A stretch of 64,000 nt of DNA from Woeseiaceae bacterium (GTDB lineage Bacteria; Pseudomonadota; Gammaproteobacteria; Steroidobacterales; Woeseiaceae), in contig JAJFKP010000017.1 in NCBI GenBank assembly GCA_021773135.1, forward strand, positions 50,520 to 114,519, written 5' to 3'. Below the pieces are notes generated by a model. That model had not been told where the DNA came from and searched no databases. It saw only the letters and a list, made by a program, of their open reading frames with translations. Positions 14,484 to 54,810 of the stretch are shown piece after piece (positions within the stretch are counted from its first letter, which is position 1; each line of letters begins with the position of its first letter). Both the position numbers and the translations under genes were made by a program.

Positions 14484-15062
14484 TCAGACTGGGCTCGTAT
14501 ACCGGGCCAAAGTATCCGAAAACTCGGAGTTTAATCGTTCCCATTCCAGCTTAAACCAAGGCGTAAAAACATCAGGCGTCTCCGCTAACTCCCGATCAAG
14601 CTCCCTCGCACTCAAGTATCTCAACGCCTCGATCTCTGTTTCGTTTGCCTGCGGGTCTTCCGCCAGCGACCCAAGGAACACGTGACAAAATTCGTTTTCC
14701 GCACCCAGCGCACCGAAAGTTGCCTGATAGGTAAAGCGATAGACGAACTCCAGATCAGCTTGCGTTTGTAGTTCATCACTGAGGCGACGGCTTGTGGCTA
14801 CCTCGATTGATTCACCCTGTCGGGGATGACTGCAACAGCTGTTGGACCAGAAACCCGGCCACAGTCTTTTTCCCTGTGCGCGTTGCTGTAGCAGAAGTTC
14901 ACCGCTGCGGTTGAACAAAAAAACCGAAAACGCACGATGCAAAACGCCATCGCCATCGTGGCACGCTGCTTTGCTCATCGTTCCTGACTGGTTGTCATTC
15001 TCGTCGACGAGAATAAGAAGCTCGTCTTCCGAAGATACAATTTTTGCTGATTCCTGTGACAC
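14484..15062 (-). CDS. idi: Isopentenyl-diphosphate delta-isomerase, type 1 (Nudix)
   Basis: HRAFSVFLFN, LLLQQRAQGKRLWPGFWSNSCCSHP, ENEFCHVF. Starts 10 nt after the upstream gene. Confidence 0.9.
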   Translation of the reverse strand: MSQESAKIVSSEDELLILVDENDNQSGTMSKAACHDGDGVLHRAFSVFLFNRSGELLLQQRAQGKRLWPGFWSNSCCSHPRQGESIEVATSRRLSDELQTQADLEFVYRFTYQATFGALGAENEFCHVFLGSLAEDPQANETEIEALRYLSARELDRELAETPDVFTPWFKLEWERLNSEFSDTLARYTSPV

Positions 15063-15072
15063 CTGGTTCCCG

Positions 15073-17295
15073 TTAAATCCGAATTTGAATTATTGTGTAT
15101 CCCGCGTTGACCAAAGCGCAAGACACAGCATCCGTTTTCCCCGGGCAGAGCGCTATGATCGACCCGCCACCGCCGGCGCCTGTCAGTTTTGCGCCAACTG
15201 CCCCGGCAGAGCGCGCGATGCCTGTCATTTGTTCGAGATCCGGAGACGAGACGCCGATTGCACTCAGTAAACCGTGACACACGTTCATCAACTCACCCAG
15301 CCGCCCGTAGTCTGACGCCTCGAGTGCTTCGACACCAGCCAACGCGACTTCATCAATGCTATTGAATATGCCCGTATACAGCGCCTTGTTATTTTCGTAT
15401 CGTCCGCGGACGCCGCTGACCAAAGACTTCGTATTTCCTCGGGTATGACTTGCGGCAACGACCAAAGGTAACGGCTCATCGAGATGTACGACGGTCGGAC
15501 CCGAAGCGTTACCCTTGCGGAACAGAATCGGTTTGGCGAATGTCGCGACATGATTGTCGATGCCTGATGGCGTTCCGTGGGTTATGGTCTCGCACTTCAG
15601 CGCCAGTTCGTTCACGTCGGCGTTTGTCAGGGACATTTTGATGAACTTTGCCGCAGCGCGTATCACAGCAACCGCAAAAGCCGCTGATGAGCCGAGACCC
15701 ATGCCCAGCGGAATACGGGCATTGACCGTTAGGTCGATGTCACGCGTGGTGCAGCCCAATTCTCTGAGAATCAGGTCGACGATGGCTGCTGCGCCGTCCA
15801 GACCAGTACTCCCTGCGCTCCATTGCTGCTGGATTCCCCAATCTGCGATAGCCAGTCGCACCCCATGCTGACCCTCCTCAATGTCGGCAGCCACAGCCCG
15901 ATCGATGGGTATCGCAAGCGCATGTCGGTCGTGAACGACCGCGTGCTCTCCAAACAAAATTACTTTGCCTGCCGCGGCATCGTCACGATCGCGTAGCAAC
16001 TGAGGCACGGTGCTGCTGGCATGAACGACTTTGAGTTCCTTGGCCTTGCGGATCTTTATTTCACCTGACTCAATCATTGCATCGACGACATCGGTGAAAA
16101 TTTCGTCAGGTATACCTGCTGATGCCGCAACACTGCGGGCGTGTAATCGCATATGGCCTTTTTGAATGCCGCTGGATACAAGCGCTTTGAGTGCCGCAAA
16201 GTTTTGCGCCAGACCGACCGCACCCATCAGTTCGGCAAGCTCGGTTGAACTCGTTACCCCGCTGATCGCTAGCCCAAGCGAGGCGCCAGGATTTGATTGC
16301 AGTGACCCGCCGACAATGCCGGGCTTCAGCGGCAGCTTAAGCTCACCGCACAGATCACCAGCGTCTCCGACAAACCAGTCAGTCAGCGCTCGATAGCGGC
16401 CTTTTGTTGCCGCATACGCATGCGCGCCGGCCTCGATAGCCCGCCAGTCGTTCCCTGTAGCAATCGCCACGGCGTCGATGCCATTCATAATGCCTTTATT
16501 GTGTGTCGCCGCCCGATACGGGTCCGCAAGCGCGAACCGGTTGGCCCTGACGATCCCGTCGCGAATTGCCAGAGCAGTATCGGCATTGGCATCCAGCGCG
16601 GAAAGCGGGACATTCCCGCGGGCGATGACCAGTGACGCATCGGCAAGGTTTGAGAGGATACGCAGCCCGACTCGGCCGCCGGCGACGCGCTCGATCTCGG
16701 GGCCCAGGGCCTCACAAAGTGTATTGACAACGTTCGCGCCCATCGCGTCGCGCGTATCGACATGCAAATGCACCACGACGATTGGCTCACCACCTTCCAG
16801 TTCGTGCTGTAAAAACTCGATGCCCCTGACGCCACCACCTCGCGCAACCAGGCTTGGCTGGAGTTTGTTCGCGAACTCGATAAGCGCTGACTTTGCTGTC
16901 TCCAGGCGCTGGATATATTGATCCGGAGCGGCCACATCCGACACCTGTATTTGTCCGATCAGCACGGGCTCACTGCCGGTGACAGTGAATCCACCGCTGT
17001 CGCGAAACAGCTTTGCGGCACCGCTCACGCCGGCCACAATCGATGGCTCCTCTACCACCATTGGTACAAGATAGTCCTGTCCGTTCACCAGGAAGTTGGG
17101 TGCAACGCCCAAGGGCAATCCAAATACGCCGACTACGTTCTCGATCATGTGGTCAGCGTTTCTTACCGGCAGCAAAGGCTGTCCGCCAGACAGCATCGCC
17201 GACATTTTCGAGTCAAGGTAACCGCGTTCCCGCAGTACCTCTATGCGCTCGCTAATCGATTTGCGATACAGCCCACTGATTCGCGAGTCGCTCAT
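15073..17295 (-). CDS. Bifunctional class II HMG-CoA reductase (aa 1 to about 423) / mevalonate kinase (aa about 442 to 740)
   Basis: HMGR motifs EEPSIVAG, DAMGANVVN, GIVGGS, GHMRLHARS. A linker (ASSTVPQLLRDRDDAA) is followed by GHMP-kinase motifs GKVILFGEHAVVH, PLGMGLGSSAAFAVA, TPSGIDN, KLTGAGGGGS, all in one uninterrupted frame. Confidence 0.85.
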   Translation of the reverse strand: MSDSRISGLYRKSISERIEVLRERGYLDSKMSAMLSGGQPLLPVRNADHMIENVVGVFGLPLGVAPNFLVNGQDYLVPMVVEEPSIVAGVSGAAKLFRDSGGFTVTGSEPVLIGQIQVSDVAAPDQYIQRLETAKSALIEFANKLQPSLVARGGGVRGIEFLQHELEGGEPIVVVHLHVDTRDAMGANVVNTLCEALGPEIERVAGGRVGLRILSNLADASLVIARGNVPLSALDANADTALAIRDGIVRANRFALADPYRAATHNKGIMNGIDAVAIATGNDWRAIEAGAHAYAATKGRYRALTDWFVGDAGDLCGELKLPLKPGIVGGSLQSNPGASLGLAISGVTSSTELAELMGAVGLAQNFAALKALVSSGIQKGHMRLHARSVAASAGIPDEIFTDVVDAMIESGEIKIRKAKELKVVHASSTVPQLLRDRDDAAAGKVILFGEHAVVHDRHALAIPIDRAVAADIEEGQHGVRLAIADWGIQQQWSAGSTGLDGAAAIVDLILRELGCTTRDIDLTVNARIPLGMGLGSSAAFAVAVIRAAAKFIKMSLTNADVNELALKCETITHGTPSGIDNHVATFAKPILFRKGNASGPTVVHLDEPLPLVVAASHTRGNTKSLVSGVRGRYENNKALYTGIFNSIDEVALAGVEALEASDYGRLGELMNVCHGLLSAIGVSSPDLEQMTGIARSAGAVGAKLTGAGGGGSIIALCPGKTDAVSCALVNAGYTIIQIRI

Positions 17296-18299
17296 CGCTG
17301 CTCCCTGCCGGATACTTTCACGCCGTTCAGGTCCAGTTCGACCGGCAATTCGACAAAGCCGTGCTCGCCAGCGGCTTCACAAAAACTCGAAATTGAATTG
17401 CTGTTGGTGCCCAATACGATGCCGATATCTCCGCCGCCGGATCCACATGGCTTGTACACGACATCACGGCCATAAGCCAAGCGGTAAATTTCATTGTGAC
17501 CGCCAGCGAAAATTCCGAGTGCCTGTGCAGCGCTGAACCGATGCAGTGTTGCTGTGTAGGCCCGTATCGATTCAACCATCCCGGCGGCGTCGGCTCCGGC
17601 CCACTTAACGGCAACGTTTTCCGCCGCTGCAATGAATGGAAGCCAATTTCGATCAGTCGGGCTGCCGGTGTCCAGCCGCCTGAGATGGGAGGGTGTATCA
17701 GCGGAATGGCCACTCCAGATGACACGATACAATAAATTGTCGGGCCAGGAATGATGCGCTGCCACAACGTTTTCATGCATGCGGTATTCAATCACGCCGC
17801 CGTTGAGACTGGTCGCAATATCAATCCCGCTGCCTAGTCCGCGCTGCAAACTCGCATGTGCCTGGTAGGCGAGTGCACCAGGTTCCGCTGTCTGCTCACA
17901 ACACTGGCATAACGCAACCACCAGGGCGGTCGTTGCGGCAGCACTGGAGCCGAGCCCGAATTTCTGGCCTGATTCCTGATCAGTGAATGCTGTCGTATCC
18001 ACACTGATTGCCAGTGGGTCAGGATCACCGTTGACTGCGCTGGTCCATGCGGCCTCTATCAGTTCCAATTCGGGGTGGCGGTCCTGCCACTCGAGCTTGC
18101 CATCTGCACTCACCCGGAAGCGCCACTCTCCGTCTGCGTAACCGGGTGTTCGCACGATGTGAAACTCGTCTTTCGCTGCCTCGATTCGTACGATTGCCCG
18201 GCTGTCTAATGCCATTGATATTGCAGGCGCGCCAACCAAAACCGCGTATTCGCCGGCTACAATGGCCTTGCCCGGCGCCGAGACCATAATGGGGCTCAT
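17292..18299 (-). CDS. mvaK2: Phosphomevalonate kinase (GHMP family)
   Basis: SAPGKAIVAGEYAVL start motif and GLGSSAAATTALV. ATG 18299 overlaps the decarboxylase stop (ATGA), and its stop overlaps the HMGR-MK start. The longer ORF to 18566 is read as spurious. Confidence 0.8.
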   Translation of the reverse strand: MSPIMVSAPGKAIVAGEYAVLVGAPAISMALDSRAIVRIEAAKDEFHIVRTPGYADGEWRFRVSADGKLEWQDRHPELELIEAAWTSAVNGDPDPLAISVDTTAFTDQESGQKFGLGSSAAATTALVVALCQCCEQTAEPGALAYQAHASLQRGLGSGIDIATSLNGGVIEYRMHENVVAAHHSWPDNLLYRVIWSGHSADTPSHLRRLDTGSPTDRNWLPFIAAAENVAVKWAGADAAGMVESIRAYTATLHRFSAAQALGIFAGGHNEIYRLAYGRDVVYKPCGSGGGDIGIVLGTNSNSISSFCEAAGEHGFVELPVELDLNGVKVSGREQR

Positions 18300-19258
18300 G
18301 TTGACCGCAGCAACCTTGCACCAGCGCCAAGTTTGCTGTGCATCAGGTCCTGCACGCCGGGCGTCTGTCGCAGCGCCGCCATAACGACATCGACAGAATC
18401 TGGGAGACAGATTGCTTTGACCTGAGGGCCGGCATCCATCGTGAAGAAGACAGCATGCCCCTGGTCCTGCAGCGTGCGAATGGCCTCCAGGCAGGACAGC
18501 GTGGCACTGTTCCAATAGACGATAGGCGGCTTTGAACTCCACATGACTGAATGCATTTTCAGGCAATTGTGTTCTGCAACCTCTGCAAGGCTGTTGAAGT
18601 CTTGTCGCAGCACTGCCGCTCTCGCTACCTCCAGGTCTTCGTCCTGCCGAGCCAGCCAGCTTGAATAAAAGGGAGATGTTTTCTCACCCCGTACCATTGC
18701 CTCACCGGACCCCACCGGCTTTTTCCCTTTCTCCGTTACCGCAACGACAACTTCGAGTGGCCATGGCTGGCTTTGCAGTAGTGGCTGCACCGAAATCTGT
18801 TCCTCGCCCGCAGTCAACTCAACGATGCCACCGTAAAGCGAGCGTGCGGCGGACCCGGAGCAGGCGCCGGCAAGTCGCGCAAGTGTCTGCGTATCAATCG
18901 TTGTTCGTGAAGACGCGGCGGCCGCGACAACGAGTGCCGCAAAGGCAGACGACGACGACGCAAGTCCGGCGCCTATCGGGAAATTGACTTCGCTAATGAC
19001 TTCCGCGGCCGCGCGCTTCGAACCGACGACAAGGTCCAGGCAGGCGCTCACCCGATCCAGCATTCCAGGTGCAGGGGCATCGTTGACACGCAGCGTGTCG
19101 CGGCCCGGGCGATCGCAAAACTCTACCGACATCGTTGTGCGCAGACTGTCCAGTGTTAAGGAGAAAGAGCTGACTGCGGGCAGATTCGCCTCATGGTCAC
19201 GTTTTCCCCAGTACTTGATCAGCGCGATATTAGGTTGTGCCTGTGCTACGGCTTTCAT
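18296..19258 (-). CDS. mvaD: Diphosphomevalonate decarboxylase
   Basis: NIALIKYWGKRD, FPIGAGLASSSSAFAALV, TMDAGPQV motifs. 320 aa. Confidence 0.9.
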   Translation of the reverse strand: MKAVAQAQPNIALIKYWGKRDHEANLPAVSSFSLTLDSLRTTMSVEFCDRPGRDTLRVNDAPAPGMLDRVSACLDLVVGSKRAAAEVISEVNFPIGAGLASSSSAFAALVVAAAASSRTTIDTQTLARLAGACSGSAARSLYGGIVELTAGEEQISVQPLLQSQPWPLEVVVAVTEKGKKPVGSGEAMVRGEKTSPFYSSWLARQDEDLEVARAAVLRQDFNSLAEVAEHNCLKMHSVMWSSKPPIVYWNSATLSCLEAIRTLQDQGHAVFFTMDAGPQVKAICLPDSVDVVMAALRQTPGVQDLMHSKLGAGARLLRST

Positions 19259-19374
19259 ATTTATGCGGCTTCTTGCCTGGCGCGATCAACGCTGAATATC
19301 TGGAGCCGGATTATAGCGCCGGAGCGCATCCAAAGCAGGATTCGTGTACGCTTGTCGCGATGACAGGAGTGTGC

Positions 19375-20277
19375 ATGATTGAGTCGGACAGTGAAGATTT
19401 CGTCCGAAGAATGGGTACCTACACGGATCGCACGGAGCGCTGCCTGGATCGTGTACTGCGGCCAGCCGACAAGGTGCCAGCGAGGCTTCATGAAGCGATG
19501 CGTTACGCTGTTCTCAACGGCGGCAAGCGCATTCGACCTTTACTGGTCTATGCTGCGGGAGCCTGTCTCGGCGTCGCGCCGGAAAAACTGGACGTTCCGG
19601 CTACAGCAATCGAACTCCTGCACGCCTTTTCGCTGGTGCATGACGATCTTCCCGCAATGGACGATGACGATCTGCGTCGTGGCCAGCCAACTGTGCATCG
19701 AAAATTCGACGAGGCCACGGCGATACTGGCAGCCGATGCGCTGCAGCCACTGGCTTTTCATACGATAGCAGCGGCGGTGGCGCTCGACGATACGGAAAGC
19801 CGGCAACTCACAAAGCTGATAGCAGATGCCTGCGGCTCGCGCGGCATGACTGGCGGACAGGCGATTGATCTCGCCTCGGAAGGCAAGAACCTTTCCATTG
19901 ACGAACTTACTGAAATGCACGGCCTCAAGACCGGCGCGCTGATTCGTGCCGCCGCCATGTCACCGTGCTACCTCGCGGGCGACCTCTGCGAGAGTTACTG
20001 GACGGCAATGGACGGTTTTTCCCGCGACATTGGCTTAGCCTTCCAGATTCGCGACGATATTCTGGACGTAACCGGTCAAACCGATGTCATCGGCAAACCG
20101 GCTGGATCAGATCAGAGTATGAACAAGGCAACGTGGCCGGCGATATTTGGCATGGACGAGAGCGTCCGTCGTTGCGACGAGCTGCTCGCCGCGTCTATGC
20201 AACACCTCGATACCTTTGGACTGCAGGCCGAACCGCTGCGACTGCTTGCCCATTTTATTGTTTCACGGCGCCGCTGA
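19375..20277 (+). CDS. ispA: (2E,6E)-farnesyl diphosphate synthase
   Basis: GGKRIRPLL, FARM LVHDDLPAMDDDDLRRG, SARM FQIRDDILD. ATG 19375 has AGGAG 7 nt upstream. Confidence 0.9.
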   Translation: MIESDSEDFVRRMGTYTDRTERCLDRVLRPADKVPARLHEAMRYAVLNGGKRIRPLLVYAAGACLGVAPEKLDVPATAIELLHAFSLVHDDLPAMDDDDLRRGQPTVHRKFDEATAILAADALQPLAFHTIAAAVALDDTESRQLTKLIADACGSRGMTGGQAIDLASEGKNLSIDELTEMHGLKTGALIRAAAMSPCYLAGDLCESYWTAMDGFSRDIGLAFQIRDDILDVTGQTDVIGKPAGSDQSMNKATWPAIFGMDESVRRCDELLAASMQHLDTFGLQAEPLRLLAHFIVSRRR

Positions 20278-52654: not shown

Positions 52655-53803
52655 TTGACCAGATCATCGAGAATAGCGCATGCCGCTGCTAACAATGCGC
52701 GGCTGTTTCGAGCCCCCGGACGGGCCAATATTATCGGCGAACACACTGACTACAACGATGGCCTGGTGCTGCCAACCAATACCGCGTTGTATACATGGCT
52801 CACCATCAGTCCGCGCAATGATCGCCTGGTAATGGTCACCGCAGAGAGTCTTGCAGAACATGGACGATTCGATCTTGATGATATCGCTCCTGTGCAACAT
52901 CCGACGTGGATTGATTATCTGAAGGGGGTGGCGGCTGAGATTGAAACGACGGGCATTGAATTGAAAGGTGCGGATTTAACGATTTTTGGCGAAATACCGA
53001 TCGGTGGAGGGCTTAGTTCGTCAGCGTCTGTCGAGATTGCGATGGCATTTGCAATGCTTGGCATTGCCGGTGTGTCCATGCCCGGGCGGGAAGTGGCCAA
53101 AGCGTGTCAGCGCGCAGAGCACAACTATGGCGGCGTCAAGTGCGGCATCATGGACCAGTTTTCAGTTGCCTGCGGTCAACATGGCGATGCGATGTTGCTC
53201 GATTGCCGCACGCTCACAACGGAATCGGTGACGATCCCCGTGGAAATGACGCTGCTGGTTACTGACAGCGGAGTCAAACACAGGCTTTCCGAGGGCGGTT
53301 ATAACCAGCGAGCGGATGAGTGTCGGAAAGCCGTTGAGATGCTAAAGGCCAAGGATTCTTCGATCATGGCGCTGCGCGACGTTGAGCCGGAAACCCTGGA
53401 CGTGCACGCGGCGATGCTTGGCAAAGACCTGCTGCGGCGATGTCGCCACGTAGTCAGTGAGAATCAGCGCGTCCGGCAGGCCTTCCATGCATTACAGGCA
53501 GGAGATATTAGCGGTGTAGGTACGCTGGTAAAGCACTCGCACATGAGCTTGCGCGACGACTATGAGGTTAGCTGTGACGAAATCGAATCCCTCGTTGGCA
53601 TTGCTGATGCCTGTGACGGTGTCCTGGGATCAAGAATGATGGGTGCAGGCTTCGGCGGATGTGTTCTATCCGTCGTACGGACAGAATGCGTTTCTGACGT
53701 CAGGCGTGAGATAGGCGAAAAATACGGCGCAATTTGTGGTGCGGAACCATGGATACACACAGTTTCAGCCGCAGCGCCGGCCGGAGAGGTTGCGGTGACA
53801 TGA
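52655..53803 (+). CDS. galK: Galactokinase
   Basis: PGRANIIGEHTDYNDG signature and GGLSSSASVE GHMP motif. TTG start. Confidence 0.92.
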   Translation: MTRSSRIAHAAANNARLFRAPGRANIIGEHTDYNDGLVLPTNTALYTWLTISPRNDRLVMVTAESLAEHGRFDLDDIAPVQHPTWIDYLKGVAAEIETTGIELKGADLTIFGEIPIGGGLSSSASVEIAMAFAMLGIAGVSMPGREVAKACQRAEHNYGGVKCGIMDQFSVACGQHGDAMLLDCRTLTTESVTIPVEMTLLVTDSGVKHRLSEGGYNQRADECRKAVEMLKAKDSSIMALRDVEPETLDVHAAMLGKDLLRRCRHVVSENQRVRQAFHALQAGDISGVGTLVKHSHMSLRDDYEVSCDEIESLVGIADACDGVLGSRMMGAGFGGCVLSVVRTECVSDVRREIGEKYGAICGAEPWIHTVSAAAPAGEVAVT

Positions 53804-54810
53804 AATCAGGGCACCATTCCCATTCCCGCCGAAACCTGCTTACCGATGAATGGGTGCTGGTTTCCCCGGACCGGAACGAACGCCCCTGGCAGGGTCAGCT
53901 TGAGAGCGTCATTCTGGAGCCCGATGCAATCTACGCACCCGATTGCTACCTGTGCCCCGGGAATCAGCGTGCCAACAAAGTTCATAATCCTGATTACAGC
54001 GGCCCCTTTGCTTTCGATAATGATTTTGCCGCACTCTCACCTGCTGGCGATGCAGAGTCTGGCGGCAATCCTTTGTTTGAATCACGCCCCGAATCTGGCC
54101 GCTGTCGGGTGGTCTGCTACAGCCACCAGCATAACGAGCGATTGAGCACCATGGGCGTCGCGCACATTGCGCAGGCTATAGAGATGCTCACTGAGGAGTA
54201 CGTCACTCTCGCTGCGGACGACGCGATGCGCTATGTACAGGTTTTCGAAAATCGCGGTCAGATGATGGGCAGCAGTAATCCGCACCCGCACGCCCAGATC
54301 TGGGCAACCGAGCACATCCCGGACGAGCCTGCCAAGGAACTTCTCACGCAAACACAATGGTGGAACGACAAGCAAACGCTGCTGCTTGCCGACTACCGGC
54401 GCGCGGAAACCGAGACCGGCAGCCGTGTCGTTGTGGAAAACAGACACTTTGTGGTGCTGGTGCCTTTCTGGGCAACCTGGCCATTCGAGACCCTGCTGCT
54501 GCCAAAAAGGAACTTCGCCGCATTCGATCAAATGTCGCCGGACGAAGTGACCGGCCTGGCGCAGATACTTAAATCTGTGCTTGCTGTTTACGACAGGTTG
54601 TTTGACGTGCCCATGCCGTATTCGCTCGGATTTCATCCGCAGCCCGCTGACGGGAACGCACATCCGGAATGGCTGTTTCACGCTCACATCTGTCCTCCTT
54701 TGTTGCGCTCGGCCAGCGTACGCAAGCACCTGGTTGGCTTCGAGATGTTTGGCATGCCACAACGTGACCTGACGCCCGAATTGGCGGCAGCGCGACTGCG
54801 TAGCGTTTGA
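53800..54810 (+). CDS. galT: Galactose-1-phosphate uridylyltransferase
   Basis: CYLCPGN zinc site and HPHAQIW active-site His-Pro-His. The ATG overlaps the galK TGA (ATGA). Confidence 0.92.
   Translation: MKSGHHSHSRRNLLTDEWVLVSPDRNERPWQGQLESVILEPDAIYAPDCYLCPGNQRANKVHNPDYSGPFAFDNDFAALSPAGDAESGGNPLFESRPESGRCRVVCYSHQHNERLSTMGVAHIAQAIEMLTEEYVTLAADDAMRYVQVFENRGQMMGSSNPHPHAQIWATEHIPDEPAKELLTQTQWWNDKQTLLLADYRRAETETGSRVVVENRHFVVLVPFWATWPFETLLLPKRNFAAFDQMSPDEVTGLAQILKSVLAVYDRLFDVPMPYSLGFHPQPADGNAHPEWLFHAHICPPLLRSASVRKHLVGFEMFGMPQRDLTPELAAARLRSV

Follow-up and report, generated by a model that had tools for sequence, protein, structure and literature searches.

Natural bifunctional proteins of the mevalonate pathway are represented by MvaE of Enterococcus faecalis, which has been characterised biochemically and joins an N-terminal acetoacetyl-CoA thiolase to a class II 3-hydroxy-3-methylglutaryl coenzyme A (HMG-CoA) reductase (HMGR; PDB 7M3H and 7M1Z for the reductase part), thereby combining steps 1 and 3 of the pathway, which are not consecutive. 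Class II HMGR is an obligate homodimer whose active site lies at the dimer interface, and in solved structures both HMGR and mevalonate kinase (MK) form dimers. The subject of this study is a gene, hmgr::mvk, located in a 64,000-nucleotide stretch of the genome of a Woeseiaceae bacterium (assembly GCA_021773135.1, contig JAJFKP010000017.1, positions 50,520 to 114,519 of the forward strand), referred to below as the window. Analysis of the sequence confirmed this gene to be a genuine fusion, in which two predicted enzymes of consecutive steps, HMGR (step 3) and, C-terminal to it, MK (step 4), form a single polypeptide.

No paper describing a natural HMGR-MK fusion was found in a literature search from whose coverage subscription journals were largely absent, which justified the doubt expressed in an earlier first-pass annotation of the window as to whether such a fusion had been characterised. 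Hoshino & Gaucher (2018) mention only the trimming of 'fused' partners, and no HMGR-MK fusion is mentioned in PMC13488460, which surveyed the diversity of HMGR in 2026.

The fused gene and its two halves

The open reading frame (ORF) of the fusion lies on the minus strand, a point left unstated in the first-pass annotation, starts with ATG and encodes 740 aa without internal stops in the ORF listing (Table 1). It had been described there as one uninterrupted frame holding a complete HMGR of class II followed by a complete mevalonate kinase of the GHMP superfamily, and with this description the ORF, the NCBIfam cut-offs, the invariant residues and the conserved architecture all agree. The translation was found to contain every motif that had been quoted from it, with VVEEPSIVAG, RDAMGAN, PGIVGGS and GHMRLHARS in the first half and GKVILFGEHAVV, GLGSSAAFAVA and TGAGGGGS in the second. 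Pfam placed HMG-CoA_red at residues 14–386 (E 2e-99), GHMP_kinases_N at 505–585 and GHMP_kinases_C at 656–723. No thiolase domain was detected by Pfam and HMGR starts at residue 1, in keeping with the earlier distinction of this fusion from the thiolase-HMGR protein MvaE. In a PDB search, stand-alone class II reductases were the counterparts of residues 1 to about 421 and stand-alone mevalonate kinases those of residues 440–735, with no solved chain spanning both halves together.

The HMGR half scored 365.1 bits against TIGR00532 (cut-off 259.95) over residues 2–386 and 333 bits against PF00368. Its best structural matches were 9V7Y (1e-114), the Streptococcus pneumoniae enzyme 5WPJ (8e-106) and the Pseudomonas mevalonii enzyme 1QAX (about 2e-103 to 5e-103), the last of which was aligned over its residues 5–416 with a shared register from about residue 40. 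In this alignment Glu83, Lys267, Asp283 and His381 carry identical numbers in the fusion and in P. mevalonii. All four are invariant among 50 aligned fused homologues, the set on which the conservation figures below are also based, as are the ENVxG dimer motif (E52, N53 and G56) and R152 of the cofactor helix. The roles of these residues are taken to be those known from established work on P. mevalonii HMGR. The ENVxG region was modelled poorly in an AlphaFold2 monomer, with a predicted local distance difference test (pLDDT) score below 50 at residues 51–59, as would be expected in such a model for a segment that packs on the partner subunit.

The likely cofactor was judged by the rule of Miller & Kung (2018) in the form quoted in PMC13488460, where Dx(V/L)xxxL in the cofactor helix stands for NADH and (H/Y)xSxxxR for NADPH. 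The helix is of the NADH type (D..L...L) in 9V7Y and in 1QAX, with D146, L148 and L152 in the latter, and reads YPSIVKR in 5WPJ. The fusion, with QPSLVAR, belongs to neither type but comes nearest to the NADPH type, since by the quoted rule its Ser and Arg agree with the NADPH motif, the Asp of the NADH motif is missing and its first residue is Gln. As QPSLVAR resembles the quoted NADPH motif and has no NADH-type Asp, the reductase half is predicted to be biosynthetic and either NADPH-preferring or able to accept both cofactors. The idea of an NADH-type reductase driven forward by the attached kinase was dropped, the cofactor helix having no NADH signature under the same quoted rule.

The MK half matched TIGR00549 over the whole of the profile (positions 1–276 of 276, residues 441–716) with 251.3 bits against a cut-off of 163.05, and it aligned over its full length with 2X7I, 6MDE, 4HAC and 2HFS (E 1e-31 to 1e-35; 6e-35 for 2X7I). 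The GHMP signatures GKxILxGEHxVV (I), GxGLGSSAA (II) and KxTGAGGGG (III) were checked together with the catalytic Asp and the Mg-binding Glu. Invariant in all 50 fused homologues were motif I, GKVILFGEHAVV with K444, E450 and H451, motif II, GMGLGSSAA (G533–S537), followed by E569, S577 and D580, and motif III, TGAGGGGS (G706–G711), and these motifs line up with the same motifs of 2X7I, 6MDE and 2HFS. The residues concerned presumably act as is established for the rat and bacterial kinases. No locus of the genome other than the fusion exceeds the TIGR00549 cut-off; further GHMP matches fall to an adjacent phosphomevalonate kinase (PMK)-like gene, diphosphomevalonate decarboxylase (MDD) and galK. 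The C-terminal half therefore qualifies, by its sequence, as the predicted mevalonate kinase of the pathway rather than another GHMP kinase. It had been cautioned at the outset that one half could lack conserved catalytic residues; by alignment, these are kept in both.

Table 1. Positions of the fused gene, its parts and its neighbours, counted from the first nucleotide of the window.
Feature	Position	Strand	Basis
Fused hmgr::mvk gene	15073..17295	-	Single ORF, 740 aa + stop; Pfam and NCBIfam domains above curated cut-offs
Class II HMG-CoA reductase domain, residues 1–421, including C-terminal three-helix flap with His381	16033..17295	-	TIGR00532; 1QAX alignment
Cofactor helix motif Q146-P-S148-L-V-A-R152	16840..16860	-	Alignment to 1QAX and 5WPJ
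Interdomain linker, residues 422–442 (about 21 aa)	15970..16032	-	Alignment of 50 fused homologues; lowest AlphaFold2 pLDDT
Mevalonate kinase domain, residues 443–740 + stop codon	15073..15969	-	TIGR00549; alignment to solved MKs
Diphosphomevalonate decarboxylase (MDD), first gene of the operon	18296..19258	-	TIGR01240 243 bits, cut-off 171
Phosphomevalonate kinase-like GHMP kinase	17292..18299	-	GHMP_kinases_N; TIGR01220 88 bits, cut-off 166; conserved position
Type 1 isopentenyl-diphosphate isomerase (NUDIX)	14484..15062	-	NF002995 176 bits, TIGR02150 152 bits, both above cut-offs
HMG-CoA synthase, divergent, 490 aa	10035..11507	+	PF01154 and PF08540 above Pfam cut-offs
Polyprenyl diphosphate synthase (IspA-like), divergently transcribed	19237..20277	+	PF00348, E 8e-60

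Linker and arrangement of the domains

The linker had been put at about 15973–16023 in the first-pass annotation; its existence and approximate place stood, and its ends were moved slightly outwards, to 15970–16032, by the alignment. Its length among the homologues varies from 16 to 50 aa with a median of 25, it is rich in Ala, Ser, Asp and Gly, and the mean majority fraction is 0.34 in the linker versus 0.66–0.77 in the domains. The flap domain of HMGR, which closes over the active site, lies about 20 residues ahead of the point where MK is joined. The AlphaFold2 monomer, built with 50 sequences, had a mean pLDDT of 84.5 and a predicted template modelling (pTM) score of 0.56. The individual domains were modelled well and no confident interdomain arrangement was obtained in this monomer, with a linker pLDDT below 50 and the confidence minimum at residues 428–432. 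No internal start for a free MK was detected in the linker, where the only in-frame candidate codons are GTG and TTG, none of them with a Shine-Dalgarno-like sequence upstream.

Distribution of the fusion

Within the Woeseiaceae the gene was detected in 116 of the 121 sampled genomes, in 16 of 16 genera and in 71 of 72 high-quality genomes, and about 100 of the 121 carry a single stop-free frame over residues 1–738, including examples on contigs of at least 1 Mb. A protein search returned at least 120 clusters at 56–94% identity, all with the three Pfam domains, more than 100 of them showing this identity across 100% of the length of the fusion. Nearly all of the clusters listed are 728–780 aa long, with three shorter, of which at least one is partial. 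When the HMGR half alone was used as query, the matches were almost exclusively fused proteins.

Beyond these family genomes, the search of taxonomy and domain architecture that the first-pass annotation had proposed showed that at least six phyla carry such fusions. Among 49 loci from named genomes (L005–L053), 47 have a continuous HMGR and MK ORF, one is fused with a frame break (L053) and one is unfused (L050). The fusion was recorded in Woeseiaceae, Rhodanobacteraceae, Lysobacteraceae, Pseudomonadales (metagenome-assembled genomes, MAGs), Salinisphaera and Rhodospirillaceae, and further in Acidobacteriota, Calditrichota, a Myxococcales MAG, Methylomirabilota, Nakamurella and two cultured strains of Cryobacterium. 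About 25 of the 49 loci keep the gene order MDD-PMK-fusion-isomerase. In a class-wide sample of 300 genomes, class II HMGR was present in 33 and the fused form in about 6–8, and after clustering at 50% identity about 20–25 of the best 150 representatives were full-length fusions.

In two Woeseiaceae loci (G065:C8:30129-32353 and G073:C41:22212-24844) the HMGR and MK matches lie in different frames, about 490 nt apart in the latter. Such split frames may reflect frameshift errors or decay to pseudogenes, or they may be additional fissions.

One frame of about 960–975 aa was found to hold HMGR, MK and type 1 isopentenyl-diphosphate isomerase (IDI) in a sister genus within the family. This arrangement was located in three assemblies on contigs of 0.5–1.0 Mb (L093, at G022:C1:429000-433500; L094, on G096:C1; L095, on G008:C4; proteins P0233 and P0234), and about 15 genomes have frames of 928–998 aa. 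PMK and MDD, which act between MK and IDI, remain separate in this genus. Other putative HMGR fusions were seen among metagenome gene calls, namely MK::HMGR in reversed order, PMK-like::HMGR and HMGR::polyprenyl synthase::squalene/phytoene synthase (1162–1453 aa), together with HMGR::SQS::epimerase and HMGR::squalene-hopene-cyclase-like proteins (50%-cluster representatives P0250, P0263, P0267, P0291, P0273, P0298, P0288 and P0266).

Origin of the fusion and its re-splitting

In a tree of the HMGR domain, fusions of the type found in the named loci form one clade with a support of 95 in the Shimodaira-Hasegawa-like approximate likelihood-ratio test (SH-aLRT), rising to 99 after two short rows were corrected. 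This clade is separate from the unfused enzymes of Myxococcota and Chloroflexota and those of the P. mevalonii type. Membership was taken to mean an HMGR that branches inside the clade and a colinear single frame of about 710–780 aa; the window protein has such a frame and groups, inside the clade, with the fused proteins of Woeseiaceae (SH-aLRT 99). Two apparent unfused members of the clade, L048 and L053, were rejected as artefacts of contig truncation. The pairwise identities of the HMGR and MK halves correlate with r = 0.89, and the two halves have therefore evolved as one gene since fusing. In Corallococcus aberystwythensis (NZ_RAWK01000008.1, L050), hmgr and mvk are separate, 85 nt apart, and are followed by MDD; this arrangement is a plausible pre-fusion state.

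A divergent HMGR::MK-like fusion of 718 aa was found in another gammaproteobacterial family (L088:2920-5076, on G300:C10), with the HMGR half above its cut-off and the MK-like half below that of TIGR00549. Its HMGR groups, with an SH-aLRT of 100, with unfused HMGRs that have a separate GHMP-like gene downstream (L089 and L090). Forcing it into the main fused clade was rejected (ΔlnL 163; approximately unbiased test, p-AU 9e-58), the group that was tested having been named after the tree was seen. As this protein falls outside the main fused clade, the fusion arose at least twice.

The reverse event also seems to be represented. A Woeseiaceae-like locus with the synteny of the window (L086:5001-7241, JGI 3300010430 contig Ga0118733_100001966) has an in-frame TAG in the linker and an ATG two codons after it (…SAGD*AMSS…), giving an HMGR of 435 aa and an MK of 309 aa, and to judge from its sequence it is an apparent secondary fission of the fusion. 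Another candidate for a natural fission (P0196/L087) was rejected, as its TGA stands where motif I has its conserved Gly (GKIILL*EHAVV); that stop is probably an error or marks a pseudogene.

Operon and pathway context

The fused gene is the third of four on the minus strand, in the order MDD-PMK-HMGR::MK-IDI. Start and stop codons overlap as ATGA at both the MDD/PMK and the PMK/fusion junctions, which implies translational coupling of MDD, PMK and the fusion, and IDI starts 10 nt downstream of the stop codon of the fusion. The PMK-like gene has no PMK model above cut-off and its position is kept in related loci, so that by domain and position it is assigned as a putative divergent phosphomevalonate kinase. 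Its longest ORF, from a TTG at 18566, overlaps MDD by 270 nt, and translation more likely begins with the ATG at 18299. A scan of the operon for promoters and terminators gave matches no commoner than in shuffled sequences.

The substrate of the fusion would be supplied by the HMG-CoA synthase (HMGS) encoded nearby, for which the NCBIfam HMGS models were the best matches while falling below their cut-offs (162 versus 360 bits). Orthologues 77–82% identical to it adjoin the operon in other Woeseiaceae loci. Four enzymes of the alternative methylerythritol phosphate (MEP) pathway, Dxr, IspH, IspG and IspE, were not detected in the genome, which is 99.67% complete, while control genomes did score. 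Because of this absence the mevalonate pathway is taken as the sole route to isopentenyl diphosphate (IPP), and since the fusion is also the only MK, the hmgr::mvk gene should be, and on this genomic evidence apparently is, indispensable in this organism.

As listed, the IspA-like ORF opens with a GTG and overlaps there with the 5' end of MDD, which runs on the opposite strand. Since PF00348 is matched only from residue 83 onwards and the L086 orthologue has 296 aa, translation probably begins about 50 codons downstream of 19237. Further away in the window lies a galK-galT pair (52655–54810, plus strand; galK TIGR00131 311 bits, galT TIGR00209 381 bits), whose galK is the only other sizeable GHMP-kinase match within the window.

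Proposed function and alternative explanations

The protein is very probably a bifunctional biosynthetic HMGR/MK that is expressed from a coupled operon, arose by loss of a stop codon and is tethered rather than tunnelled. Its N-terminal class II HMGR would reduce HMG-CoA to mevalonate, probably with NADPH, and its C-terminal GHMP kinase would phosphorylate that mevalonate with ATP. Translation would proceed from the coupled operon mvaD-pmk-hmgr::mvk-idi, and, the fusion being the only HMGR and the only MK of the organism, all isoprenoid precursors would pass through it. It may have originated when the stop codon between neighbouring hmgr and mvk genes was lost, the fused gene then spreading across phyla together with the operon. 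The kinase would hang on a flexible tether of variable length, fixed to the last helix of the mobile flap domain of HMGR, and the benefit may lie in fixed 1:1 co-expression, co-localisation and perhaps co-assembly and not in a structured substrate tunnel.

Several points weigh against this proposal. The activity of both halves is deduced from sequence for every member of the family, PMK and HMGS score below the NCBIfam cut-offs so that parts of the pathway assignment rest on synteny, and Gln instead of the His or Tyr of the quoted rule opens the cofactor motif, which makes NADPH preference a prediction and cofactor promiscuity possible. In addition, an AlphaFold2 monomer cannot display interfaces that exist only in an oligomer, and a channel in a higher-order assembly is possible.

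Alternatives that deny the fusion or one of its two activities were weighed against the same evidence. The chance that the single ORF is an artefact of assembly, binning or an indel, and that the organism really has two genes, is negligible: the assembly is a draft of 64 contigs and a few relatives have split frames (G065, G073, L086 and L087), but about 100 family members, each assembled independently and some of them on long contigs, share the continuous frame, which also recurs in the 47 named loci across phyla, in RefSeq genomes of cultured isolates and in protein clusters from several sources, which number more than 120, and the linker holds no internal start preceded by a ribosome-binding site. 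A local assembly or indel artefact is excluded by the recurrence of the frame in these family assemblies and in the named loci elsewhere. It is also very improbable that one half is catalytically dead or regulatory, for example with an MK-like half that senses a phosphorylated intermediate to regulate HMGR. Pseudoenzyme domains are common in fusions and the independent fusion L088 does have a subthreshold MK-like half, but in the clade of the window protein the ATP-, Mg- and substrate-binding motifs and the catalytic Asp are all invariant, the MK half scores far above its cut-off (251 against 163 bits) and no other MK is present in the genome to do the job. A degradative reductase half, one that like its P. 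mevalonii counterpart would serve catabolism by oxidising mevalonate to HMG-CoA, is suggested by the name of the best NCBIfam model, TIGR00532 ('HMG-CoA reductase, degradative'), by the same name in RefSeq and GenBank records and by the close structural relationship to the P. mevalonii enzyme. It is nonetheless most unlikely, given that the Asp146, Leu148 and Leu152 that specify NADH in P. mevalonii are replaced by Gln, Ser and Arg, resembling the NADPH motif of the quoted rule, and that the gene sits between PMK/MDD and IDI with HMGS nearby. With no MEP pathway in the genome, IPP synthesis must use the fusion, and it would be futile for one chain to carry both an oxidase and a kinase that compete for mevalonate.

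The benefit of the fusion is a separate question. The first-pass annotation had suggested that it could channel mevalonate, an idea weakened, if anything, by the linker, the monomer model and the IDI fusion described above. A true substrate channel, in which mevalonate would be handed from the HMGR site to the tethered kinase through a defined interface between domains or subunits with higher flux and no loss of mevalonate, is unlikely, though it has points in its favour: the two steps are consecutive, the order HMGR-then-MK was fixed at least twice independently and the reversed MK::HMGR occurs too, which suggests selection for proximity, and the kinase is joined on about 20 residues beyond the active-site flap of HMGR. 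These are opposed by a linker that is hypervariable in length and sequence, the lack of a confident relative placement of the domains in the monomer model (pTM 0.56), the extension of the fusion to the non-consecutive IDI with PMK and MDD left separate, the occurrence of HMGR joined to further operon neighbours (for example PMK-like::HMGR and HMGR::prenyl synthase) and the persistence of a natural split variant (L086). On this evidence the fusion of neighbouring genes fits better than a purpose-built channel, and it is favoured, on the gene arrangements seen, that HMGR may readily fuse with whichever operon neighbour adjoins it. Quite doubtful as well is a reading of the fusions as traces of a physical metabolon of the pathway, in which MK, and in the sister genus also IDI, would be borne on the mobile flap of HMGR, the separate PMK and MDD would bind to this scaffold, and flap closure or feedback binding at the kinase would be coupled to the activity of the reductase; if true, the tethered protein would channel and regulate flux beyond the ability of separate enzymes. 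Tethering with co-expression is thus preferred to a tunnel, on account of the variable linker, the low interdomain confidence, the fusion to non-consecutive IDI and the natural re-splitting.

Significance and comparison with known systems

Public records name members of the family only 'hydroxymethylglutaryl-CoA reductase' or 'hydroxymethylglutaryl-CoA reductase, degradative' (e.g., RefSeq WP_092450168.1, Cryobacterium levicorallinum), and the label 'degradative' is merely the name of model TIGR00532. As databases name the first half only, automated reconstructions will score carriers as lacking mevalonate kinase, and a biosynthetic enzyme may be misread as catabolic from its record name. The carriers affected are Woeseiaceae, many other Gammaproteobacteria, some Acidobacteriota, Calditrichota and Cryobacterium. 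The whole Woeseiaceae family appears to route all of its isoprenoids through the fusion, the absence of the MEP pathway being taken from this genome. The fused, tri-fused and split forms are natural matched sets for testing whether flux is gained by tethering consecutive enzymes, a question that metabolic engineers now address with artificial fusions and scaffolds. The main value of the locus accordingly lies in the correction of annotation and in this natural test set for enzyme tethering.

The fusion is genuine, conserved and probably essential, a so far unstudied variation on a familiar theme and not a new principle. With the stand-alone class II HMGRs (1QAX, 5WPJ and 9V7Y) it shares colinear full-length homology, ENVxG, the C-terminal flap and catalytic residues at the P. 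mevalonii positions, but those enzymes of about 425 aa end after the flap, where the fusion continues into the kinase. The stand-alone MKs of Staphylococcus aureus (2X7I), Methanosarcina mazei (4HAC/6MDE) and Leishmania major (2HFS) likewise have GHMP motifs I–III and the catalytic Asp; they are free proteins of about 300–330 aa, whereas the fused kinase lacks a separate start codon and is produced solely as the C-terminal continuation of the reductase. The Corallococcus locus has the same order of HMGR, MK and MDD, with HMGR 49% and MK 36% identical to the halves of the window protein, and differs in having two ORFs and in branching outside the fused clade. IspDF of the MEP pathway (e.g., in Mesorhizobium loti; PMC13001223) is also a widespread natural fusion of neighbouring genes for isoprenoid precursors, but belongs to another pathway, has unrelated folds and joins non-consecutive steps, and is an analogue only. 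MvaE is the closest characterised analogue, being a natural bifunctional protein of the same pathway with a homologous class II HMGR (E 4e-81). It nevertheless carries its partner at the N-terminus, whereas here the partner is a C-terminal MK, which places the consecutive steps 3 and 4 on one chain, and because the fusion has no thiolase domain MvaE is regarded as an analogue, of whose family the fusion is not a member.

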